Assembly (NCBI RefSeq): GCF_000758165.1 | Contig: NZ_JNUP01000067.1 | Span: 77,646-141,645, forward strand | Reading direction: 5' to 3' | From: Spirochaeta lutea | GTDB lineage: Bacteria > Spirochaetota > Spirochaetia > DSM-27196 > Salinispiraceae | Length of the DNA: 64,000 bases | Shown: piece after piece, positions 36,215 through 48,275 of the stretch | Layout: each line of letters starts with the position of its first letter | Numbering within the stretch: position 1 is the first letter of the stretch | The notes under the pieces: generated by a model | The model's database searches: none | What the model saw: only the letters and a program-made list of their open reading frames with translations | What the model was told of the DNA's origin: nothing | Translations under genes and position numbers: made by a program

Positions 36215-37003
36215 ATGAAACGGCTTTTACTATTGCTAACGATATTCCTTGGCGGCATCCTGGCGGGCACCACCCCCGGGTTTACCCAAACAAGCCCAGG
36301 TTCCCGGGCAGCCGGAACCCCGGCGAATTTGACGGCCGAACAGATAATCCGAAGGACCCAAAATAACGAGGTTCACGAAACCTCCTTTATCCGGGGACGG
36401 ATGACCATCGAGGACCGCTTCGGAAGCAAGGTAAGCACCTTCCGGGCCTGGTCCCAGGGAGAAGAGGATATGCTTCTGGAGTTCACCAGCGTGGAGGAGG
36501 AGGGACAAAAGGTCCTGCGCACCCAGGGGCAGCTCTACCTCTACTACCCCGACGCTGCGGAGATTATCCGCATCCAAGGCAGCGCTCTCCGGGACAGCCT
36601 CTTGGGCTCGGACTTTAGCTACGAGGATATGACCGGCGGCCGGGATCTCCTGGACACCTACCGGTTCACCCTCCTGGGAACCGAGTCCCTGGATGGCCGG
36701 GAGGCGTACAAGATACAAATGGATGCTAAAAACTCCAGCGTGGCGTACCCGAAGCAGATTGTCTGGATAGACACCCGGGATTTTGTAACCCTGCAATCCC
36801 ACCGCTTCAGCCTATCCGGCCGGCTCCTAAAGGAGATGCAGGTTCTGGAAACCATGGAGGTGGATGGAAAGATCTTCCCATCCCGGACTACCATGCGCGA
36901 CACCCTGAAAACCAACAGCTCCACGGAATTCGAGATCCTGGAAATCGAATTGGGCCTCACCCTCCCCCGGGGCATCTTCAGTCTGGAGGAACTCTCATGG
37001 TAG
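36215..37003 (+). CDS. Outer-membrane lipoprotein-sorting / LolA-like carrier family protein (probable).
   Basis: Signal peptide MKRLLLLLTIFLGGILAG. About 260 aa soluble beta-rich protein immediately downstream of the LolD/C/E-like genes. Overall resemblance to the LolA-like DUF family is a judgement, not a motif match. Confidence 0.5.
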   Translation: MKRLLLLLTIFLGGILAGTTPGFTQTSPGSRAAGTPANLTAEQIIRRTQNNEVHETSFIRGRMTIEDRFGSKVSTFRAWSQGEEDMLLEFTSVEEEGQKVLRTQGQLYLYYPDAAEIIRIQGSALRDSLLGSDFSYEDMTGGRDLLDTYRFTLLGTESLDGREAYKIQMDAKNSSVAYPKQIVWIDTRDFVTLQSHRFSLSGRLLKEMQVLETMEVDGKIFPSRTTMRDTLKTNSSTEFEILEIELGLTLPRGIFSLEELSW

Positions 37004-37111
37004 CCCCCCAGGTTCTTCATCCCGGATCACCCGGGGCAGGCTCGACGCGGACACCCCAGCCCCTCCTTGGCATGGTCATGGCGGCCCTGGGATTTCCAGG
37101 GGGGTGCCGGG

Positions 37112-37237
37112 CCGGGACTCTCCATCGGACCGGGACTCTCCGCCGGGCCGGGACTCTCCGCCGGGCCGGGACTCTCCATCGGACCGGGACTCTCCATCGG
37201 ACCGGGACTCTCCACAGAACCGGGACTCTCCACAGAA
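37112..37237. repeat. Tandem array of seven 18-bp units, CCGGGACTCTCC followed by a variable hexamer (ATCGGA, GCCGGG or ACAGAA).
   Basis: Direct reading. The units fall between the LolA-like stop (37003) and the most plausible start of the next gene (37318), or within an N-terminal extension of it. Confidence 0.85.
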
Positions 37238-37317
37238 CCGGGATGGTGGGGCAGGCCGGCCATCAAGGCGACCCCGATGAGCTCCCCAGGATTCCCACCC
37301 GGCATCGGGCCAATTCT

Positions 37318-38577
37318 ATGGAAATCCCCGGGGTCCAGGGCGGGCGTCTCTCACCCTCCCCAGTACGGATTCTAGTACTGTTCTTGATTCCGGTTCTCAT
37401 GGGGATCAGTCCGCGGTTCCTGGGCGCAGAGCAAACCCTTACAGCCAAGGTAACCGCCCTGTCCTCCATCCAGTACGACCAGGCTCTGGCCGACCTCGGC
37501 CCCCAGGCGGCTCCCGGAGGGGGGTCCCTCCTGCCCGCCCCGGGCTGGTCTGCCTACCCCGGCGCCCAGGCCGAGCTCGGCTTCGCTTCCCGGGGAAACC
37601 GGAATGTCCGGGCTGAAATACGGCTCTCGGCGACCCTGGGAACCCTCAGTTTTGTGGATGTATCCCGGCTCTGGGTGAAGTTCCGGGTTTCACCCCTCAC
37701 GGTTACCATCGGTAAAACCCGCCTTGCCTGGGGACAGGGACTCTTTTTTAATGCCGGGGACCTGCTCCACGGCAGCACCGATCTCACAGCCGATCTGCAG
37801 TCCGAAGAGCTCCGGAGCAATGCCGACTGGGTAACCGCCCTCACCTTCAGCCTCGGGACCTTCAGTATTCTGGAAGTAGCGGCGGTACTGCCCGCCCTGA
37901 ATACCCTGGCAGCTCTCTCCAGCCAGCTGTTCGCAGCCACAGGCCAGGCAGTCTCTGGGGGGACCGACCCCACCTCCAACCCGGGGATGCAGCTCTTTCC
38001 TCCCCTATCCCAGGGAAAGGCCGCCCTTCGTCTGGTTCTCCCCCTGGGCCCGGTAAACACCGAAACCGCATATCGCTTTACCTGGCAGCACCATACCTTG
38101 AGCATCTCCGCCCAATGGCATCTCCTCACCAATCTCTTCGCCGGCCTCACCCTGCCCATTCCCGGCCCCGGAGCATCCCAGGCTGACCAGGACGACCCGA
38201 CTGCGGCCCTATCCAGGGACATGCGAATCTCCGCAGGCCTCTACGACATTCTAAAACTCGGCAGAGAATCAAGTATATCCTACCGACTGGAAGCCCTCAT
38301 CTCCCCCGGGGCAGAGCCTGACGAGATCCTATACCTCTATCCCGAACTCACCCTCGCCATGAATCAAACCATGGCTCTATCGGTCCGGGGCCTCGCTGCC
38401 CCCCTGGAAGACCCCTGGGCAAACTGGAACCTGAGTTTCTCCTGGCAAATCTTCCAAGGTACAACCCTCCTGGCCCACCTGGGCGGTAAGGCCGGGGAGC
38501 TCGTCTGGGGAATCATGGAACCCGGCGCGCCCCAGGCGGATCTTCGCTTAACCCTGGGAGTACGCTATGTCTACTAA
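37318..38577 (+). CDS. Putative outer-membrane beta-barrel protein (hypothetical). Start placed at MEIPGVQG, ahead of a signal-peptide-like segment. The ORF is open back to 36997.
   Basis: n-region with Arg residues, h-region ILVLFLIPVLMGI, c-region FLGA/EQ. Alternating amphipathic pattern. C-terminus ...LGVRYVY has aromatic terminal residues typical of OMP barrels. Confidence 0.45.
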   Translation: MEIPGVQGGRLSPSPVRILVLFLIPVLMGISPRFLGAEQTLTAKVTALSSIQYDQALADLGPQAAPGGGSLLPAPGWSAYPGAQAELGFASRGNRNVRAEIRLSATLGTLSFVDVSRLWVKFRVSPLTVTIGKTRLAWGQGLFFNAGDLLHGSTDLTADLQSEELRSNADWVTALTFSLGTFSILEVAAVLPALNTLAALSSQLFAATGQAVSGGTDPTSNPGMQLFPPLSQGKAALRLVLPLGPVNTETAYRFTWQHHTLSISAQWHLLTNLFAGLTLPIPGPGASQADQDDPTAALSRDMRISAGLYDILKLGRESSISYRLEALISPGAEPDEILYLYPELTLAMNQTMALSVRGLAAPLEDPWANWNLSFSWQIFQGTTLLAHLGGKAGELVWGIMEPGAPQADLRLTLGVRYVY

Positions 38578-39226
38578 TACTGACACCATAAAAACCCGCA
38601 AACAACAGCTCCGAAACCGGATCCAGGCCGCCAAGGAGGATTTCTTTACCATTCCCCAGCGCCGGGACTCCGAGGCGGACTTCCTCCTGCCCCAGCTCCT
38701 GCGCCTGCCCCAGTGGCAGGAGGCCCCGGGCATCCTCTGCTACCTCTCCATGGAGGACGAGTTCCCTACGGACCGTATCCTCCAGATCGCCCGGGGTTCG
38801 GGTAAACCCGTGGCCCTTCCCCGGTTGACGGGCCGGGGCCGGATGGATTTTTTTCTCTGGGACGGCGCTACCCAATCCCTGGAACCCCATCCCTACGGGA
38901 TGCTCGAACCTCCCAGCGATCCTCAGCAACTGGTCCAGAACCATTTTTTGGATTTTTTAGGTGATTCCAATGCCGGCACTCCCCATCCCTGGGTCTGCAT
39001 CACCCCCGGACTTGCCTTCGACCGATCATGCCGGCGGCTGGGCCGGGGGGGCGGTTACTACGACCACTACATCTTCCGGATGCGGAAAGACTACCCCGGC
39101 GCCCTCTATTTCCTTGCCATGGGTCTCTCATTCCAACTGCAGCGGGCCGTTCCCGTGGACACCTACGACCAGCTGGTGGATGCTACACTGGTTCCCCAGG
39201 GGTTGTTTACTCGAACACCAGCCTAG
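38567..39226 (+). CDS. 5-formyltetrahydrofolate cyclo-ligase.
   Basis: About 219 aa with the GGGYYD motif (RRLGRGGGYYDHYI) characteristic of MTHFS/YgfA. Confidence 0.8.
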   Translation: MSTNTDTIKTRKQQLRNRIQAAKEDFFTIPQRRDSEADFLLPQLLRLPQWQEAPGILCYLSMEDEFPTDRILQIARGSGKPVALPRLTGRGRMDFFLWDGATQSLEPHPYGMLEPPSDPQQLVQNHFLDFLGDSNAGTPHPWVCITPGLAFDRSCRRLGRGGGYYDHYIFRMRKDYPGALYFLAMGLSFQLQRAVPVDTYDQLVDATLVPQGLFTRTPA

Positions 39227-39327: not shown

Positions 39328-40989
39328 TCAGATATCCCGGCTGTCCCGGATCCGCATATCTGCTGTCAGGCACTCCAAGGACATCCCCAATTCCTTGTTC
39401 CCCTCCACAAAGGGAACCCGTTCCCGAAGCCAGTCCACCAGCGCCGGGGCCGATCCCGGTCCTGTGCCGGAATCTGAGCCCAGCCCGGAAACAGCCAGCC
39501 ATGACCCAAACCGCAGTTCCCAGGCCTGACCCGCAACGGCAAGCCCGTGGGCAGCACAGAGGTAGGCCAGGTCCAGGGCCTCTCCAAGCTTCAACGCGGA
39601 AACCGTCCCCATGGAAACCACATCCTGGTTCTGACTCTCGGTAGGACGGGTGAGGACCGAAACCGGTCCGGCGGTATGTTGCGCCTCTGCGGCCAGGGCG
39701 CTGGTCGTAATCCCCAGGGCCTTGAGGCCGAAGCGCGGCCCCTGACGGGTTTGTCCATTCCAGGGATCCTCATCACCCCCTCCGACCCCCTCCTCCCCGG
39801 GAGGAACCAGATTATCGGGCAGGATTCCCCGGCTATCCAGGAGCTGCTGGACCTGACGGTCCATCAGGGTTGTGGTGGTAGGAAGGGCGATGCGCAGGTA
39901 ATCGCAGGCCGCCGAAATATGCCCGCCGAAGAAGTTACCGGTATGGTAGACCCGGCGGTCCAGGGTATCGAAGAGGGGATTATCATTAGCCGAATTCAAT
40001 TCATCTTCTATCCAGGGTTCGATAGCCTGGAGGGTATCCCAGAGCACCCCGTTCATCTGGGGGGCGCAGCGCAGGCTGTATCGGGGCTGTATATTACTGG
40101 ACCGCCGGCGCATACTTTCCCGAAAGCCCGGGTCGCTGGGGGTATCTGCTATCCTGTGGCTAGGCCGGGCCGGGTCGCTGATGGGAGTAGGATCCAGACC
40201 GCCCCGGCGGCGGATGATCTCCCCGGAGGTTCGGGGTCCGGGATGGTGCTTCTGCCGATGCACCCAGTCTTCGAAGGGCTCTCGGGGGGTATTCAAGGCC
40301 GCAGCTCCCAGGGCCGTGCAGGCATCGGCCCAGGCAGCAAGGCTCTCGGTCTGGCACCAGTACACCCCCGCCAGGGCTGTCATTACCGCTGTGCCGTTCA
40401 TCAACGCCAGACCCTCCTTCATCTCCCACTTCCAGGGCTGAATTCCCCGTTCTTCGAAAACCTCCCGGGTATTCTTCACCTCCCCCCGATACCAAACCCG
40501 TCGCCCCCCGGCCAATACCGCCGCCAGGTAACTGAGGGGGGTAAGATCGCCGCTGGCACCCACACTCCCGCGGCTGGGAATTACCGGTGCGATACCGGCA
40601 TTAAAGACCGCCGCCATATGCTCCAGGAGCTCCGGGCGGATTCCGGATACGCCGCGGCAGAGGCTCACTATCCGGGTAAAAAAGACAGCCCGGGACATAT
40701 TCTCATCCAGAACCGGCCCCACCCCCGCACCATGATACTCTATAACCCCTTCCTGGAGGGCTGAACGCCACTGGGGCGGAATATGCAGGTCGCCCTGGGC
40801 CCCGAACCCGGTGGTAACCCCATAAATGGCCTCTCCCCGACGTTCCAGATCCTCAAGGAGAAGCCTGGATTTCCGAGTCTTCTCCAAGACCTCGGCATCC
40901 AGGACCAACTCCGCCCCCCGGGTATACACCCGGTAAAGTTCACGTAATGTGATTTTTTTATCACAAATTGCTATTTTTTCCTTGACCAT
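39328..40989 (-). CDS. Aromatic amino acid ammonia-lyase (HAL/PAL/TAL family), here most likely tyrosine ammonia-lyase for p-coumarate synthesis.
   Basis: MIO-forming Ala-Ser-Gly triad in [16 protein letters not shown]-terminal GVTTGFG, and YSLRCAPQ block. Located divergent to pyp and next to a 4-coumarate-CoA ligase. Confidence 0.85.
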
Positions 40990-41054
40990 TTATCCCCCTA
41001 TACCTATATTTGTACCTATACTTAGGTATAAGACTACCGTATGGAGGAAAAAAT

Positions 41055-41432
41055 ATGGAAGTAATTAACTTTGGATCCCAGGATATGGGAAACGTCATGG
41101 CAAAACTCGGAGACGGAAAGATAGACGACCTGGCCTTTGGAGCAATCAAACTGGACAAAGACGGTACAATCCTCTCCTATAACCAGGCTGAAGGAGCTAT
41201 CACCGGCAGGGATCCCCAAGAGGTAATCGGGAAAAATTTCTTTACCCAGGTCGCACCATGTACCAACCAGCCGGGTTTCTTCGGAAAGTTTCAAGACGGG
41301 GTGGCAAAAAATGAGCTGAACACCATGTTTGAATACGTGTTTGATTATAAAATGCAGCCTACCAAGGTAAAGGTCCACATGATGAAGGCCCAGATCGGGG
41401 AAGGCTACTATATCTTCGTAAAGCGTATCTAG
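41055..41432 (+). CDS. pyp: Photoactive yellow protein (125 aa).
   Basis: Colinear with Halorhodospira PYP, with conserved Tyr42, Glu46, Thr50, Arg52 ([13 protein letters not shown]) and chromophore Cys69 (QVAPCTN). C-terminus [22 protein letters not shown]...IFVKRI. GGAGGA RBS. Confidence 0.9.
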
Positions 41433-41508
41433 TACCTAGACCCCGCACCTGGCGACCCCTGCTCAAAAGGGGTCTGCCATCGCCGAATCACCCCCGGGAG
41501 GACCCCCC

Positions 41509-42744
41509 ATGAAACTGCCCCGAAGCATGATAGAACGCTTTGTTCTCGATTTTGTTACCTACCACCTTGCTGCGCTTCGGGGGCAGGGGGGCGGAAACGA
41601 AACCGGCGGAAACACATCCCCCCAAACCGGACTGAGTATCCCCCAGAAAAACCGGGAACAGCTTTGGACAACATCCTTTCATGCAGACCCCTGGTTCATG
41701 GACAGCCTGGAGCTGGTAACCCTCGCGGGCATGATGGCGGAAAGTTTTCATATTCACCGGGTGGGAATTGAGGATATGCTCCTGGCAAAACCCAGTCTCA
41801 AGGACTGGTCCGAACTCGTTGAAACAAGCCTTCAACACTATGACCGGGAACTCACATTTTTTACCTCCGGCAGCACCGGACTCCCCAAAGCGGTAGCTCA
41901 CCGCACCCGGCTCCTGGAGGAAGAGGTGGATCACCTGGCCGAGACCGTAACAAAAAGCCTTTCCAAGGCCGGCCAGGGCCCTCCCCGAGAAATTCTATCC
42001 ACCGTTGCCAGTAACCACATCTACGGCTTTCTATTCACCATCCTACTTCCCTTGGCCCTAGATATCCCCGTAAGGCCCCTCAGCGGGCTATCTCTAAACC
42101 TAGATGCCGGTCAGATACTAGTAACCATTCCCAACCTCATCCGCAGCTGGCACACCCGATCCCCCTCAGCCCCAAAACAAGGCATGGTACTCACCTCTAC
42201 CGCACCCCTGGACCGGGAACTTGCGCAGTGGCTCGATTCCGGCCCCATCCCCTGGATGGAGGTCTACGGCTCATCAGAGACCTCAGGTATAGCCTACAGG
42301 CAGCGGGCTGAAGACAGCTTCACCCTCCTGCCCTACTGGACTCCATCCCCGGATGGTCAAAGCCTGAGCAGGCAGGGTCTGGAGGAACCGGCGGACCTTC
42401 CCGACCTGGTGGAATGGGACACTCGAACCACCCTGCGGCCCCTCGAACGCAGGGACCAAGCCGTGCAGGTTTCCGGAATCAACGTCTTCCCCCGGGAGAT
42501 CGCCCGGCAGCTGGAAACCAACCCCCTGGTATCAGCAGCCCGGGTGCGGCCCATGGAGACCCCCGGGGGTACCCGGCTGAAGGCCTTCATTGTACCCGCC
42601 GACCCGGCCGCCCCAACCCAAGAAACGGAACAACGCCTCCGGAGTTGGGCGGCATCCCGCCTGCCCGGAACCAGCCGCCCCGCCAAGTACAGCTTCGGCC
42701 CGCGAATACCCGCGAATGCCATGGGCAAGGAGCAGGACTGGTAG
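41509..42744 (+). CDS. p-Coumarate-CoA ligase (adenylate-forming enzyme; PYP chromophore-activating pCL).
   Basis: AMP-binding P-loop FTSGSTGLPKAVAH. About 410 aa short ANL-family ligase. Synteny with pyp and TAL. Confidence 0.75.
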   Translation: MKLPRSMIERFVLDFVTYHLAALRGQGGGNETGGNTSPQTGLSIPQKNREQLWTTSFHADPWFMDSLELVTLAGMMAESFHIHRVGIEDMLLAKPSLKDWSELVETSLQHYDRELTFFTSGSTGLPKAVAHRTRLLEEEVDHLAETVTKSLSKAGQGPPREILSTVASNHIYGFLFTILLPLALDIPVRPLSGLSLNLDAGQILVTIPNLIRSWHTRSPSAPKQGMVLTSTAPLDRELAQWLDSGPIPWMEVYGSSETSGIAYRQRAEDSFTLLPYWTPSPDGQSLSRQGLEEPADLPDLVEWDTRTTLRPLERRDQAVQVSGINVFPREIARQLETNPLVSAARVRPMETPGGTRLKAFIVPADPAAPTQETEQRLRSWAASRLPGTSRPAKYSFGPRIPANAMGKEQDW

Positions 42745-42907
42745 TCATCACCATCCGCCGGAGCTAAACCTGCCTATCCCTGAATGTGCCCCCGGCCCCG
42801 TTCCTTCCCCAGCCCGAATTTACCGAGCCCGTACCCACCCAGGACCGCCCGCCGCCCGAGCAATCGCCGCCCCGAACAGGACCACCGGACCGCCCTCCAG
42901 TCAGGCG

Positions 42908-42960
42908 ACCGGTATCCCTACCAAACCGCCCTCCTGTCACAGAACCGGTATCCCTACCAA
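42908..42960. repeat. 17-bp direct repeat ACCGGTATCCCTACCAA x2 (period 36 bp) in the 360-bp Pro-codon-rich intergenic region downstream of pcl.
   Basis: Direct reading. The spacing of about 3.5 helical turns could represent paired binding sites. Confidence 0.5.
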
Positions 42961-43105: not shown

Positions 43106-43693
43106 ATGGCAATGATAAAAAGCGCCCTCGATCTGGCCCTGGAACGAACCAAGGATATCGCCAGCGACAAAGCCTCCCTCAGGGCGAAAGAAACAAAAGA
43201 GCGGGGCATGCGGTTATTTTCCCAAATCTACGATTCCCCGGACTTCGACGCCGCTCAGGAAATCACCAAGGCCCCGAAAGAGGATCAGGAACAGCTGCGA
43301 AGAGGCCTGTTCCAAACCGCCCTGACCCGGCTCCAGCTTCCCCAGACCGAGGCGGCCCTCCATGACCTTCCCGCTGTAACCCGGGCCCTGATCGCCACTG
43401 GAGCGGAAGCCTCGGCGGCAACCCAGATCATGGATCAGCTCCAGAGCCTCTTTGACCGCTACCTCCAGGACCGTGACCAGCTCTACAACGCAGTGGTCCA
43501 GCAGTATACCCCGGTTCTCCGGCAGAAGGAGCAGCAGCTTGCCCAACAGACCGGCCGTAAGGTAACCCTAACCCCGGAACAGGACCCGGAGTTCCAGAAA
43601 TACTTCAAACAAAACCTGGACCAACTGGAAGAACAGTACCAACAAATGGTGGATCAAGCCCGGAGCCAGCTTCAGACCCTCACCGGCCTGTAA
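43106..43693 (+). CDS. Hypothetical helical, Gln/Glu-rich protein.
   Basis: 195-aa ORF with coding-like composition. No motifs recognised. 47 bp upstream of the cyclase gene. Confidence 0.4.
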   Translation: MAMIKSALDLALERTKDIASDKASLRAKETKERGMRLFSQIYDSPDFDAAQEITKAPKEDQEQLRRGLFQTALTRLQLPQTEAALHDLPAVTRALIATGAEASAATQIMDQLQSLFDRYLQDRDQLYNAVVQQYTPVLRQKEQQLAQQTGRKVTLTPEQDPEFQKYFKQNLDQLEEQYQQMVDQARSQLQTLTGL

Positions 43694-43740: not shown

Positions 43741-46700
43741 ATGCAGACCCAAAGCAACCATGGGCATCTTAAACAGGGAGACCGGCGGAATGTCACCGTC
43801 CTGTTCACCGATCTGGAGGACTTCACCCGGCTCTCCCAGGACCTGGATCCAGAAGAAACCGAGCAACTCATGGATACGGTATTCTCCAGTTTCGAGCAGA
43901 TCATCCGGCGACACGAAGGAACGGTTGAAAAATATATCGGCGACGCCCTGGTAGCAGTCTTCGGCACCCCCAGAATTCATGAGGACGACCCCGTACGGGC
44001 TGTACATGCAGCCCTGGATTTTTACCAGGTTGTACGCCGGCTGAACCAGGGCTTCACCACCCACAACCAGGGGCTGCGGTTCAGGACCGGAATTCACACC
44101 GGCCTCATCACCACGGGGAAGCGGGGTGATCACACCGTGGTGACCGGCCACACCATGAACATTGCCGCCCGATTACAGAGCGCCGCCGACCCGGGAACCA
44201 TTCTGGTAAGCGAACAAACCCACCAGGAATGCGGCGGGGAGTTCGCCGTATCACCGCCCCAGGAGATCAAGGCCAAGGGCATCAGCGACCTGATCTCAGC
44301 CCGAAAGATTCTCGGGCGCAGCCCCCATTCCCTTAAAGATGAACGGTTCTTCCTCGGCAACACCGACCTGGAATCCGAGATTCTGACCGCATACCTTCGG
44401 TTTGACGGTACATCCCCCGGGGGATTTCTCCTGGAAGGAGAGCCCGGTTCGGGCAAAACGGCCCTGGCCAAACACATCATCAGTAAACTCAGGGCCTTCC
44501 CCGACTTCCAGGCCCCGATCCTCCACGCCCGGGCGCGCAAGTTCCGCAGCCGCCCCTTCGCCGTCATCACCGACAGCATCATCAACACCCTGCACCTCTC
44601 CCCGGACAGCGCCCCCGAAGAGATCACCGCCGCCCTGGAACACCAGTACAGGATCCCCCAATCCTCCGCCCGGGCTTTCCCCGCCACCCTGGAGCTGCAT
44701 TCCAAGGACAAGGCGCCGGGGGACTACCTGCCCATGCTCACGGAAATCTTCCGGGCCATCCTCAGTACCCCGACCCCGGGGCCCTACCAGCCCATCATCT
44801 TCGTCGACAATACCGATTTCATTGATCCCCAAAGCATGGCGTTTTTCCGGTTCTACATCCGTCAAAGTCAGCAGTTTCCCTTCTTCCTCTTCACCGACCG
44901 CCACCCGGGGGAGGATATCTGCTCCCTCTTTCCCGACATCGAGGTCCGGGAGGTTCCGCCTCTGGGGACGGTGGACGCCCAGGCTCTGATTCAGCATCTT
45001 CAGGATCAATACCAGCTTCCTCTCAAACACGAAGATGTTCAGCGAATTCTGACCAGCGCCGGGGGCAATCCCCTGTTCCTCCAGAGCTACATCCGGTACA
45101 TGGCGGAACACCACGAAGAACAGAATCCCGTGGAGGTACCGTCAACGGTACAGAACGTGTATCTGGCAGAGCTGAGCACCTATAACGATGATGTACGGGA
45201 TTTGCTAAAGAAACTATCGGTGTTTAACCATTCCTTCTCCCTGGCTGATGCCCAGTGGATGCAAACCCAGACCCAGGGGGATCCCGGTTTAGTAACCCGG
45301 GCCCTGGAGTTCTTCCTCCAGCAGGATATCATCACCCAGGAAAACGACATCTACTACTTCCGCCACGATGTACAGAAAAAAGCGATATACAACAGTCTCC
45401 TAAACTACAACAAACGTATTCTGCACCGCCTCATCGCTGCCCGCATGAGAATGCAGGATCATCCCCATCCGGTCCGGCTGGTTCACCACCTTGTGAGGAG
45501 TGAAGCCTACCAGGAAGCCTTGGACGTACTAAAGACCGCTCCGGACCGCAGCGTGAACCTGGATTTTCTGCCCTATCTTGAACTCATGGAATCAACCTTC
45601 CAGGGGGATGATCTGGATACCCAGCTGAGCATCCAGTTCAGCCGTTGTGCTATTCTCTTTAATAACGGGCGCACCAAAGAGGCCGACACCATCGTACAAA
45701 AAATCCTCAGCACCGCTATATCCCGCCAGCATCTGCCCTCCGCAGCCCGGGCCTACCACCTGTTAACCGGGTATAATGCGAAAAGTTTCCGGTACAATAA
45801 GGCATCCTACTGCGGCATGAAGGCCTTGGATTTTTACCGCCGCAGCAACCCCGAGCACCCCGCCCAGGGAAACCTGCTTCACATTCTTGTGGGTATGGAA
45901 ACCGCCCGGGGTTCTGTGAACCGGGCCCAGGAGCTCCTTGATGAGCTTGATCAAACCGCCCGGGATGTCCCAGCCATCCGGTTCGCCGCCGACTTCGCCC
46001 GGATAGAATTCCTTGAAATTCAGGGGCTGTACCGGGATGCCCAGGACCGTCTGGCTGCCCTGCCGGATACCTTCCAGGATTCGGATGTTCCCCTCTACAA
46101 GGAGCGGTTTATGGCGAGTCTGGCATGGAACCGTCTTGATCTGGAGCAGTTTCTGTCGGTAGCTCCGGCTATTATCCAATCTCCCAGCCAGGATGCAGCC
46201 ACCCGGGCACGCCTCAGCGCCCGGACTGCCTTCGCCCGGCACTCCCTTCTGGGTTTCGCCCCGGGAGATTACCTCGACCAGGCAGCCTTCTACAGCCTTA
46301 GGACCCAAAACGATTTCGATCTGCTCAGCGCTGAAGCCGGACGGTCCCAGGTTCTGGCTTGTCTGGGAGAATACGAGAAGGCCGAGGCAGTCGCCCGGGA
46401 AACCCTCTCCCTGGCCCTGCGGCACTCGGCCTTCCACCCCGCCTTTACCCTGCTCATGGTGCTTCTGGAAACGGCCGTCATACGGGGAAATCAGAAGGAG
46501 ATTGAGTTTTATCTGATTGAAGCAGAGCATATCCATCGCCAGGGCATGTACTTGGATCCCCTGGACACCATTCAGTACCGCTATTTCAGGGCCATCCACC
46601 TGCCTGCCGGCTGCCAGCCCAGGCCGGAGGAGGAGCTCCAGGAGCTATGGAGCCGTACCCTGGAAAACCTCCAGGGAGAGAGGGGCGTTGAAATCCTCCT

Positions 46701-46758
46701 GGGAATGAGAAATTTTGCAGAAATTCAGAAAAGTCTTGAAAGCCGTACCCGGTCATGA
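43741..46758 (+). CDS. Class III nucleotidyl (adenylyl/guanylyl-type) cyclase domain fused to a STAND/AAA+ P-loop NTPase and a C-terminal TPR-like helical repeat region.
   Basis: Cyclase homology domain: RNVTVLFTDLEDFT (metal Asp), KYIGDALVAVFG (second metal Asp), GIHTGLITTG. Walker A LLEGEPGSGKTALAK about 230 aa in. About 550 aa of helical repeats follow. No HTH seen at the C-terminus. Confidence 0.8.
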   Translation: MQTQSNHGHLKQGDRRNVTVLFTDLEDFTRLSQDLDPEETEQLMDTVFSSFEQIIRRHEGTVEKYIGDALVAVFGTPRIHEDDPVRAVHAALDFYQVVRRLNQGFTTHNQGLRFRTGIHTGLITTGKRGDHTVVTGHTMNIAARLQSAADPGTILVSEQTHQECGGEFAVSPPQEIKAKGISDLISARKILGRSPHSLKDERFFLGNTDLESEILTAYLRFDGTSPGGFLLEGEPGSGKTALAKHIISKLRAFPDFQAPILHARARKFRSRPFAVITDSIINTLHLSPDSAPEEITAALEHQYRIPQSSARAFPATLELHSKDKAPGDYLPMLTEIFRAILSTPTPGPYQPIIFVDNTDFIDPQSMAFFRFYIRQSQQFPFFLFTDRHPGEDICSLFPDIEVREVPPLGTVDAQALIQHLQDQYQLPLKHEDVQRILTSAGGNPLFLQSYIRYMAEHHEEQNPVEVPSTVQNVYLAELSTYNDDVRDLLKKLSVFNHSFSLADAQWMQTQTQGDPGLVTRALEFFLQQDIITQENDIYYFRHDVQKKAIYNSLLNYNKRILHRLIAARMRMQDHPHPVRLVHHLVRSEAYQEALDVLKTAPDRSVNLDFLPYLELMESTFQGDDLDTQLSIQFSRCAILFNNGRTKEADTIVQKILSTAISRQHLPSAARAYHLLTGYNAKSFRYNKASYCGMKALDFYRRSNPEHPAQGNLLHILVGMETARGSVNRAQELLDELDQTARDVPAIRFAADFARIEFLEIQGLYRDAQDRLAALPDTFQDSDVPLYKERFMASLAWNRLDLEQFLSVAPAIIQSPSQDAATRARLSARTAFARHSLLGFAPGDYLDQAAFYSLRTQNDFDLLSAEAGRSQVLACLGEYEKAEAVARETLSLALRHSAFHPAFTLLMVLLETAVIRGNQKEIEFYLIEAEHIHRQGMYLDPLDTIQYRYFRAIHLPAGCQPRPEEELQELWSRTLENLQGERGVEILLGMRNFAEIQKSLESRTRS

Positions 46759-46770
46759 CAGAATACGAGT

Positions 46771-47211
46771 ATGAACGACTTTGAAGTACTCCAGGGAGTA
46801 CCACTTTTTAAGGCTCTGAACCCGAAATACCTCAAGACCATTTACAAGGCCTGTACCCGCCGGGATTTTGCACCCGGAGAGTACCTGGTAGAACAGGGAA
46901 CCCAGGGAGTTGGGCTTTTCATCATCGAGAGCGGTTTGGTGAAGGTCATTAAAACCCGCACAGACGGAACCATCATTGATGTGGCAAAACACGGTCCCGG
47001 AGAGTTTATCGGGGAAATGAGCATTATTGACGGTGCTCCCCGGTCAGCAAGTGTCCAGGCTCTGGAGGCGACTCAATGTCTTGTACTCTCAAGCTGGAGC
47101 TTTCAGTCCATTCTGGAGGCCCATCCCGAGGTGGCCTTGGGAATCCTCCCCATGCTGGCTAAACGCTTTCGGGAGACCAACGAGGCGCTGCTCAAGGCCC
47201 AGGGTGAATAA
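46771..47211 (+). CDS. Stand-alone cyclic-nucleotide-binding (CAP/CRP effector-type) domain protein.
   Basis: Phosphate-binding cassette GEFIGEMSIIDGAPRSASVQA with the conserved Arg. Beta-roll context. 146 aa with no DNA-binding domain. 12-nt gap from the cyclase gene. Confidence 0.8.
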   Translation: MNDFEVLQGVPLFKALNPKYLKTIYKACTRRDFAPGEYLVEQGTQGVGLFIIESGLVKVIKTRTDGTIIDVAKHGPGEFIGEMSIIDGAPRSASVQALEATQCLVLSSWSFQSILEAHPEVALGILPMLAKRFRETNEALLKAQGE

Positions 47212-47228: not shown

Positions 47229-48275
47229 ATGTTACCAGGAAGAACGGTTCGCATCCTGTCCATTGATGGCGGCGGTATCCGGGGCATTATTCCGGCCCTG
47301 CTTCTCCATCACATCAAACAGAATCTTGAGGCCCGGGGGCAGGAGAAACCCTTTGCCCGGATCTTCGACCTTGTCGCGGGCACCTCCACCGGGGGCTTGA
47401 TCGCCCTGGGGCTCACGGCTCCGGATACCGAAACCCCTCCGGCATCAAACCTGCTCTCCTGGCTGACTCGCCGCCGCCCGGAACCGAAACTGGGCATCAT
47501 GAACCTGGTGGATTTCTACCGGAAACAGGGAGAGTCTATCTTTCCCTCCCGGGGATTCCACCGCTGGAGGAACCTTGCCCAGGCGTTTACCGAAAAATAC
47601 GATACCCAGGCACTAGAAACCATCGCCCGGGACATCCTGGGCGACCTTACCCTGCGTCAAACCCTCTGTCCTGTATTGATTACTGCCTACGACACCACCC
47701 GAATGTCCATGCAGCTTTTCCGGACCACCAAGGCCCGGATCGATAAGAAGGAAAACTTCTACCTCCGGGATGTTCTCCGGGCCACCAGCGCCGCTCCAAC
47801 CTACTTCGAGCCCCACCAGCTCAGTCCGGTAGACCGGCCGGACCTGGAGTATACCATGGTGGACGGTGCGGTGTTTGCCAACAATCCCGCCCTCCTGGCC
47901 TACTACGAGGCGAAGCGGATTTTCCCCCTGGCAAAACGCTTTGTCATTGTATCCCTTGGAACGGGACGGCAGCAGCGCAGCTACGAGTACGACCAGATGC
48001 AGCGCTGGGGCTTCCTAGACTGGATCAACCCCCTGAAGGGCGTCCCCCTGCTCACCATGATGAACTCCGCCCAGAATCAGCTGGCCACCTACCAATTGGA
48101 TCGTGCCAGGGATGTAGACTATATCCGCCTGGACCGCGCCCTGGAGGGCTGCAGCGCCCGGATTGACGATGCCAGCCCCCGAAATATCGAGTGCCTGGAA
48201 GAGTTTGTAGAAAAAATCATCGCCAGCTCCGAACCCGAGCTCACCCGCATAATCAACCTTCTTAAGCGAGCCTAG
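47229..48275 (+). CDS. Patatin-like phospholipase.
   Basis: Oxyanion DGGGIRG, lipase pentapeptide GTSTG, catalytic Asp in MVDGAVFANNP. 17-nt gap from the cNMP-binding gene. Confidence 0.85.
   Translation: MLPGRTVRILSIDGGGIRGIIPALLLHHIKQNLEARGQEKPFARIFDLVAGTSTGGLIALGLTAPDTETPPASNLLSWLTRRRPEPKLGIMNLVDFYRKQGESIFPSRGFHRWRNLAQAFTEKYDTQALETIARDILGDLTLRQTLCPVLITAYDTTRMSMQLFRTTKARIDKKENFYLRDVLRATSAAPTYFEPHQLSPVDRPDLEYTMVDGAVFANNPALLAYYEAKRIFPLAKRFVIVSLGTGRQQRSYEYDQMQRWGFLDWINPLKGVPLLTMMNSAQNQLATYQLDRARDVDYIRLDRALEGCSARIDDASPRNIECLEEFVEKIIASSEPELTRIINLLKRA

Follow-up and report, generated by a model that had tools for sequence, protein, structure and literature searches.

A predicted chromophore-autonomous photoactive yellow protein cluster with a Tyr-His type lyase in Spirochaeta lutea

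The pyp cluster and its prior record

Three neighbouring genes of the marine spirochaete Spirochaeta lutea, encoding an aromatic amino acid ammonia-lyase, a photoactive yellow protein (PYP) and a short p-coumarate-CoA ligase (pCL), very probably form a chromophore-autonomous PYP cluster, as judged from their sequences (Table 1). The cluster lies in a window of 64,000 nucleotides, the whole stretch of DNA analysed here. The presence of the genes, their intact motifs, the PYP family membership and the conservation of the linkage are direct observations, and the occurrence of the trio with its set of motifs far exceeds chance. The initial annotation of this DNA had proposed a self-sufficient tal, pyp and pcl set. 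This proposal is supported by a PYP that passes the equivalog model, by a pcl gene placed directly 3′ of pyp, with a homologue in the same place in 78 of 80 related loci, and by the recurrence of the divergent lyase layout in other genomes.

The S. lutea trio is already known. The PYP of the window is 100% identical to S. lutea WP_037548978.1, a protein already named PYP in RefSeq, and the neighbouring DUF6657 protein is likewise 100% identical to an S. lutea protein; the spirochete-like source suggested at the outset is thus correct. The PYP and its neighbours have been tabulated in two published PYP surveys: Xing et al. 2022 assigned it to clade A and gave precisely these neighbours, and it reappears in the list of Dohmen et al. 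2025. The initial annotation also held that a PYP in a spirochete context is unusual. That argument fails, since Spirochaetota PYPs are well documented, with 29 genomes (PMC9664959) and 5.9% of known PYP homologues (PMC12826048), and the locus itself is on record. The literature record of the S. lutea PYP consists of supplementary tables; a main-text search for PYP together with Spirochaeta gave no match.

Table 1. Features of the S. lutea pyp cluster (positions in the window)
Feature	Positions	Strand	Description
Lyase	39328-40989	(-)	553 aa; MIO-dependent aromatic amino acid ammonia-lyase, inferred TAL, BagA-like Tyr-His type
Sigma-70-like promoter match	40982-41010	(+)	TTGACC-17-TATATT; consensus match only
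Divergent intergenic region	40990-41054		65 bp, AT-rich, 34% GC
Open frame of pyp from TTG	41010-41432	(+)	
Palindrome	41013-41028		TACCTA-TACT-TAGGTA
pyp	41055-41432	(+)	125 aa; clade A PYP, Cys69 and full chromophore pocket
pyp-pcl spacer	41433-41508	(+)	76 bp, 68% GC
Hairpin	41454-41474		GACCCCT-GCTCAAA-AGGGGTC
pcl	41509-42744	(+)	411 aa; short adenylate-forming p-coumarate-CoA ligase, PYP-associated type

PYP, the ligase and the noncoding DNA

The pyp frame is open from an upstream TTG; translation from the ATG at 41055, with a GGAGG Shine-Dalgarno sequence 7 nt 5′ of it, yields a protein of exactly 125 aa. Residues 1-125 align without a gap to residues 1-125 of Halorhodospira halophila PYP (PDB 1kou), with 82 of 125 residues identical (65.6%; E=3e-54), so that the product is indeed colinear with canonical PYP, as had been claimed. 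The five chromophore-pocket residues named at that time (Tyr42, Glu46, Thr50, Arg52 and Cys69) are all kept in this alignment; more broadly, 15 of the 15 pocket positions checked are the same as in 1kou (Y42, E46, T50, R52, F62, V66, A67, P68, C69, T70, F75, Y94, F96, Y98 and M100), and the sole changed residue noted is W119, replaced by Y. The protein passes the PYP equivalog model TIGR02373 over its full length (187.2 bits against a cut-off of 143.05; residues 2-125 on model positions 1-124).

The pcl product, whose 411 aa agree with the short length of PYP-associated ligases (~390-410 aa), has the core motifs of adenylate-forming enzymes along with matches to PF00501 and PF13193. The motif TSGSTGLPK, from which the downstream gene had been recognized as a short adenylate-forming ligase, is located at residue 119 and is followed by YGSSETSG at 253, RRD at 314 and a C-terminal MGK at 405. 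The only strong family match is to the 4-coumarate-CoA ligase model TIGR02372 (E=1.7e-70), with a score of 237.6 bits, under the cut-off of 334.7. Other pyp-linked ligases score under this cut-off as well, those of Rhodothalassium (316 bits, N-terminus trimmed), Vreelandella (290), Idiomarina (284) and four spirochaetes (203-260); the cut-off, therefore, does not discriminate.

Since the function of the trio in S. lutea is read from sequence, the substrate specificities of lyase and ligase, the formation of holoprotein and light sensing are given here as predictions. The lyase would deaminate L-tyrosine to trans-p-coumarate by means of its MIO group, with Tyr56 as the base and with Tyr85-His86 in place of the classical His-Leu pair for recognition of the phenol. 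The short ligase would adenylate p-coumarate and convert it to p-coumaroyl-CoA, which would acylate Cys69 of apo-PYP. The resulting thioester-linked phenolate chromophore, stabilised by Tyr42 and Glu46, would be expected to enter the canonical blue-light photocycle of clade A.

The pyp-pcl-tal operon of H. halophila has the same three functions, with a short pCL directly 3′ of pyp and an identical pocket in PYP; its lyase gene is located downstream on the same strand, whereas the S. lutea lyase gene is upstream and divergent. TAL and pCL of Rhodobacter capsulatus have been used for production of holo-PYP in E. coli. The PYP of Leptospira biflexa, another member of Spirochaetota, belongs to clade B and adjoins sensor-less chemoreceptors, while the S. 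lutea PYP is of clade A (H. halophila-like) and has no adjacent chemoreceptor.

The region between the lyase and pyp genes contains a sigma-70-like promoter match on the plus strand and a palindrome; the palindrome was not kept in 10 other loci, as a conserved operator would be. The pyp-pcl spacer contains a hairpin, and GGGAGGA stands immediately 5′ of the pcl ATG. A search for intrinsic terminators found none convincing after pyp, pcl or the lyase gene, and none with a T-tail in the pyp-pcl spacer; pyp and pcl are probably co-transcribed. Structured RNAs were sought in the cluster and its surroundings, with no credible Rfam match.

The lyase, its selectivity switch and its relatives

The lyase matches PF00221 (E=5e-130). 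The ASG MIO triad that had been reported as intact in this divergent HAL/PAL-family protein is present as A145-S146-G147, together with the catalytic-loop Tyr56, Y304/R307 and, at 454, the motif NQDVVSMG, which is of the PAL/TAL/TAM type as opposed to NQEDHVSM of HAL. The selectivity switch is Tyr85-His86, aligned to H89-L90 of RsTAL and S82-H83 of PpHAL (reference positions were confirmed on PDB entries 2o6y and 2o78 (H89F) for RsTAL and 1gk2 for HAL).

The His/Leu switch had been proposed initially as the feature to separate TAL from HAL, and the outcome was unexpected: the classical RsTAL-type His-Leu pair is absent from these columns, yet the TAL assignment stands, because Tyr-His is the motif of BagA and the HAL-specific features are absent. 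BagA is a Streptomyces bagremycin TAL from the YH/FH lyase group (Weise et al. 2017) with Tyr-His at both selectivity positions; by that paper's own statement (PMC5651878), Tyr-His is among the known motifs of TALs, and BagA is strictly a TAL in its activity. The S. lutea lyase has the features of this BagA-like YH type: the ASG triad, the loop Tyr56 and Y85-H86. It passes none of the NCBIfam equivalog cut-offs. The TAL models match it far below theirs, NF041222 (BagA/FevW) with 315 against 1000 bits over residues 21-493 and NF053541 (FlxA) with 288 against 700, and the lyase should thus be seen as a relative, not an orthologue, of the BagA and FlxA TALs. The contexts differ too, a photoreceptor chromophore in S. 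lutea and an antibiotic in the case of BagA.

Could the lyase be a tyrosine/phenylalanine 2,3-aminomutase or a histidase, with p-coumarate for PYP coming from elsewhere, e.g. by uptake? The closest solved relatives in a PDB search are in fact aminomutases, AdmH (213 bits) and SgTAM (210), ahead of RsTAL (192); HAL and SgTAM (both S-H) likewise have His as the second residue of the switch; the top raw scores among NCBIfam models belong to hutH; and many pyp loci have no lyase at all, both among the loci examined and in PMC12826048. However, the scores are far under the respective cut-offs (324 vs 539 bits for hutH, 264 vs 501 for TAM), the Glu414 motif NQED of HAL is absent, hut genes were not found flanking the lyase gene, the literature describes YH as a motif of strict TAL activity, and MIO aminomutases would give coumarate merely as a side product. 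Moreover, the head-to-head linkage with pyp is kept across lineages in which identity between the lyases is no more than 37-53%, and such conservation points to a role of the lyase in the PYP pathway. We consider a lyase other than TAL very improbable. The histidase family TIGR01225 in particular was rejected on account of Y-H instead of S-H at the switch, NQDVVSMG, the score of 324 vs 539 bits and the neighbours, MTHFS and pyp.

The layout in which the lyase gene diverges from pyp-pcl was observed in at least 10 other genomes or MAGs of Spirochaetales (loci with a divergent lyase are L002, L003, L005-L008, L010, L012, L085/L086, L088 and those of S. africana and Salinispira). The clusters of Spirochaeta africana and Salinispira pacifica (Xing et al. 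2022, Data Set S3) have a lyase, PYP and AMP-binding protein in the same order and orientation; the S. africana PYP is 82% identical to that of S. lutea, and the two lyases are 52-53% identical to the S. lutea lyase and have the Y/F-His motif, the Salinispira one with Phe-His instead of Tyr-His. The switch is Y/F-H in the lyase of the window and in all spirochaete pyp-linked lyases, and H-L in 27 of 27 gammaproteobacterial pyp-linked TALs; the type of pyp-linked lyase thus differs between the two phyla. Between the S. lutea lyase and the pyp-linked TALs of proteobacteria, identity reaches only 28-32%, and a neighbour-joining tree, made without bootstrap, puts the HL clade apart from the spirochaete YH and FH clades. 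These observations are best explained by a conserved pyp-pcl core that is paired in Spirochaetales with a Y/F-His lyase of a lineage distinct from the proteobacterial His-Leu TAL. The pathway to the PYP chromophore is thereby seen to be modular, with the lineage of the lyase varying by phylum around the core. The trio provides a natural, genetically labelled case of a Tyr-His (Phe-His in relatives) MIO lyase acting as a putative TAL, a label that may help in annotation of the large uncharacterised family of YH/FH lyases of Spirochaetota and in mining of enzymes for p-coumarate production.

The insertion site and the adjacent cyclase block

The trio is flanked by MTHFS on one side and by a block of DUF6657, adenylate cyclase, cNMP-binding and patatin genes on the other. 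MTHFS and the four genes of the block are contiguous, with no pyp, in locus L091 and in S. africana (L092), whose own pyp cluster resides at another site (Tex/AI-2E). The arrangement in S. lutea is best explained as an insertion of the trio into a conserved spirochaete block between MTHFS and DUF6657. The flanks of the trio were searched for traces of a mobile element or target-site duplication, and no direct or inverted repeats were found there.

The proximity of the cyclase raises the alternative that PYP signals through its DUF6657, STAND adenylate cyclase, cNMP-binding and patatin neighbours, i.e. that blue light is converted to cAMP and the seven genes are one functional unit. The trio would then have been captured beside the block and retained in two diverged lineages because PYP passes light information on to the cAMP system, perhaps with control over a phospholipase regulated by cAMP. 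Indeed, the order of a lyase gene followed by pyp-pcl-DUF6657-cyclase-cNMP-patatin recurs in a second, diverged lineage, L085/L086 (identities to S. lutea: PYP 82%, lyase 43%, pCL 45%, DUF6657 58%, cyclase 52%), and the downstream genes are all on the pyp strand. Neither of the two PYP surveys discusses cAMP, and if this scenario were true, this PYP would be the first with cAMP as its output. We give it, nonetheless, a very small chance. As the block is uninterrupted in S. africana, the adjacent cyclase is probably not the PYP partner; a cyclase or DUF6657 gene stands beside pyp in none of 80 genome loci, nor in L087-L090; a spacer of 362 bp separates pcl from DUF6657; and in L093 an unrelated insertion occupies the same MTHFS/DUF6657 junction. 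With the block found without pyp and, L085/L086 excepted, the other pyp loci found without the block, a cyclase/cAMP partner was rejected as the main reading in favour of insertion of the trio into a pre-existing block. The case calls for caution with guilt by association, as the cyclase next door has the look of a partner and yet is part of that pre-existing block.

The lyase and pcl genes have a host-like GC content; pyp alone is low (46.6%, GC3 0.59), which may reflect its amino-acid composition.

Genes and earlier records of the pyp cluster

The tyrosine ammonia-lyase (TAL), photoactive yellow protein (PYP) and p-coumarate-CoA ligase (pcl) genes described in the initial annotation lie exactly at the positions claimed there, and the cluster is genuine and intact, with key motifs in all three genes. 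The mechanical PYP ORF begins at TTG 41010; the start at ATG 41055, 7 nt past GGAGG, yields the canonical 125-residue protein. Colinearity with canonical PYP was borne out by a gapless end-to-end alignment to Halorhodospira halophila PYP (PDB 1kou; E=3e-54; 82/125 residues identical), in which the chromophore-pocket residues Tyr42, Glu46, Thr50, Arg52 and Cys69 are all conserved, as are Phe62, Val66, Ala67, Pro68, Thr70, Phe75, Tyr94, Phe96, Tyr98 and Met100. The score of 187.2 bits is above the curated NCBIfam PYP cut-off (143 bits). The short downstream ligase does carry TSGSTGLPK, along with the adenylate-forming motifs YGSSETSG, RRD and a C-terminal GK. Its sole strong family match is TIGR02372 (PYP-type 4-coumarate-CoA ligase, E=2e-70), under the cut-off (237.6 versus 334.7 bits). 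This cut-off is narrow; pyp-linked ligases of Rhodothalassium, Vreelandella and Idiomarina (284-316 bits) and of four spirochaetes (203-260 bits) miss it too. We infer the functions of lyase, PYP and ligase from their sequences.

Features in and around the pyp cluster (window positions unless a compared locus is named)
Feature	Positions	Strand	Description
526-aa ORF	36997-38577	+	overlaps the ends of a LolA-like gene and MTHFS by a few bases
MTHFS	38567-39226		other border of the trio
lyase	39328-40989	-	553 aa, upstream of pyp, divergent; PF00221 aromatic amino acid lyase, E=5e-130
palindrome	41013-41028		perfect, 6-4-6
pyp	41055-41432	+	125 aa
pcl	41509-42744	+	411 aa, downstream of pyp
tandem repeat	42884-42955		36-nt unit present twice, the copies 81% identical
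DUF6657	43106-43693	+	downstream of pyp
adenylate cyclase-STAND-TPR protein	43741-46758	+	1005 aa; AAA_16 + TPR; downstream of pyp
cNMP-binding protein	46771-47211	+	downstream of pyp
patatin-like lipase	47229-48275	+	downstream of pyp
EAL phosphodiesterase, locus L089	8919-9917		immediately 5' of pyp
hybrid histidine kinase with Hpt, locus L087	10021-11820		~1.5 kb 3' of pcl

The cluster had been annotated and catalogued before, and its host phylum is well documented for PYP. Both the PYP and the neighbouring DUF6657 protein match Spirochaeta lutea database entries at 100% identity, and NCBI already names the former 'photoactive yellow protein'. In Xing et al. 2022 (PMC9664959) the corresponding entry, WP_037548978.1 of GCF_000758165.1, is assigned to clade A, has Y/E/C intact and is tabulated with the gene neighbourhood seen in the window; Dohmen et al. 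2025 (PMC12826048) list the same protein. Functional PYP was counted in 29 Spirochaetota genomes (PMC9664959), Spirochaetota contribute 5.9% of all PYP homologues (PMC12826048), and our homology search found dozens of Spirochaetales PYPs 59-82% identical to that of the window; therefore, the claim of an unusual genomic context fails. The new points are modest: a Tyr-His (YH) type lyase in spirochaete pyp clusters and an insertion into the MTHFS/DUF6657 block.

Selectivity and lineage of the lyase

The ASG MIO triad reported for the divergent lyase is intact (Ala145-Ser146-Gly147), and the catalytic-loop tyrosine is also there. The selectivity switch was located by reference to RsTAL (...NLVH-H89-L90-ASGVGP; the H89F mutant structure entry differs at that site only) and to P. 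putida HAL (...LVL-S82-H83-AAGIG, checked on the solved structure). When the pyp-linked lyases were aligned together, the switch read His-Leu (HL) in all 27 from gammaproteobacteria, and Tyr-His in the window lyase and in every one from spirochaetes apart from locus L002, which has Phe-His (FH). The top 120 homologues of the window enzyme are all YH (74) or FH (47), counts whose sum also takes in the window lyase, RsTAL and HAL. Thus the proposed check did not return the His-Leu of classical TALs, while the TAL assignment stands as a YH type. Because YH is a known TAL motif, with FH a possible intermediate (Weise et al. 2017, PMC5651878), a BagA-like TAL of the YH type is the best reading of the enzyme; the match to the BagA/FevW model (315 bits, well under the model's orthologue cut-off) fits this reading. 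The closest solved structures are the aminomutases AdmH and SgTAM, so aminomutase activity may be present, judging by sequence, but the conserved pairing of the lyase gene with pyp favours a lyase. The histidase in a hut context for which the initial annotation had allowed did not come up: the motif NQDVVSMG is that of TAL, PAL and TAM (NQEDHVSM in HAL), scores against the hutH models are far under the cut-offs, and no hut genes were found nearby, so the signature is not that of a histidase.

Of 80 related genome loci, 78 have a pcl homologue after pyp. Gammaproteobacterial loci have the order pyp-pcl-tal on a single strand, whereas the lyase is divergent and head-to-head with pyp in the window and in other Spirochaetales (L002, L003, L005-L008, L010, L012, L085/L086, L088), as also in S. 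africana and Salinispira pacifica (Xing et al. 2022, PMC9664959). Other spirochaete loci (L013-L015, L075, L087, L089, L090) have the pyp-pcl pair alone. In a neighbour-joining tree without bootstrap, the proteobacterial HL enzymes form one clade, and the main group of spirochaete pyp-linked lyases, window included, adjoins a large ~525-aa YH/FH family. Strong divergence among operon-encoded TALs was reported previously (Dohmen et al. 2025, PMC12826048). On the most parsimonious view, the conserved core consists of pyp-pcl, and the lyase lineage that provides p-coumarate differs between phyla.

The ~525-aa family (P0130-P0240; L081, L083, L084) comes from Spirochaetota and Treponema, and some of its clusters contain hundreds of metagenomic members. 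Near both members examined, pyp, pcl and other obvious phenylpropanoid genes are absent; one lies between a two-component pair (before) and an ArsR-type regulator (after).

Insertion of the trio and its neighbours

MTHFS, DUF6657, STAND adenylate cyclase, cNMP-binding and patatin genes make a block conserved in Spirochaetales, with junction insertions differing by genome. The cyclase, cNMP-binding protein and lipase look like a cAMP-controlled phospholipase module. A cyclase serving as the PYP partner in a light-to-cAMP pathway is suggested at first sight by L085, a diverged relative (PYP 82%, lyase 43% and cyclase 52% identical) that retains the whole order from lyase to patatin. However, S. 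africana (L092) and another spirochaete (L091) have MTHFS/DUF6657/cyclase/cNMP-binding (/patatin) without pyp, the S. africana pyp cluster being at another site beside Tex and AI-2E genes (Xing et al. 2022, PMC9664959); in L093 the insertion at this MTHFS/DUF6657 junction is another gene, a methyltransferase; and no other pyp locus (80 related loci and L087-L090) has a cyclase next to pyp. We therefore consider such a partnership highly improbable. The block without pyp in L091 and L092, together with the S. africana cluster elsewhere, identifies the S. lutea trio as a ~3.9-kb insertion between MTHFS and DUF6657. No repeats marking the insertion were found at its borders, and GC content is below that of neighbours in pyp only.

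The 36-nt tandem pair sits in the unusually long 362-bp pcl-DUF6657 spacer, the downstream border of the trio. The divergent lyase-pyp spacer is AT-rich (65 bp) and has one sigma-70-like match, correctly placed for pyp. The palindrome, TACCTA-TACT-TAGGTA, is located after the -10-like hexamer and ahead of the pyp ribosome-binding site; it is not conserved in 10 other loci, with only L005 having a similar TATACTTAGATA. No Rfam family was found in or around the cluster, and no clear terminator after pyp, pcl or the lyase.

The Spirochaetales pyp-pcl pair occurs in at least four distinct genomic contexts, and the nearest signalling genes vary between spirochaete pyp loci, as in L087 and L089 (see table). 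The 526-aa ORF, for which no Pfam match was found, has an N-terminal run of GTLHRT/GTLRRA hexapeptide repeats (about 37100-37250).
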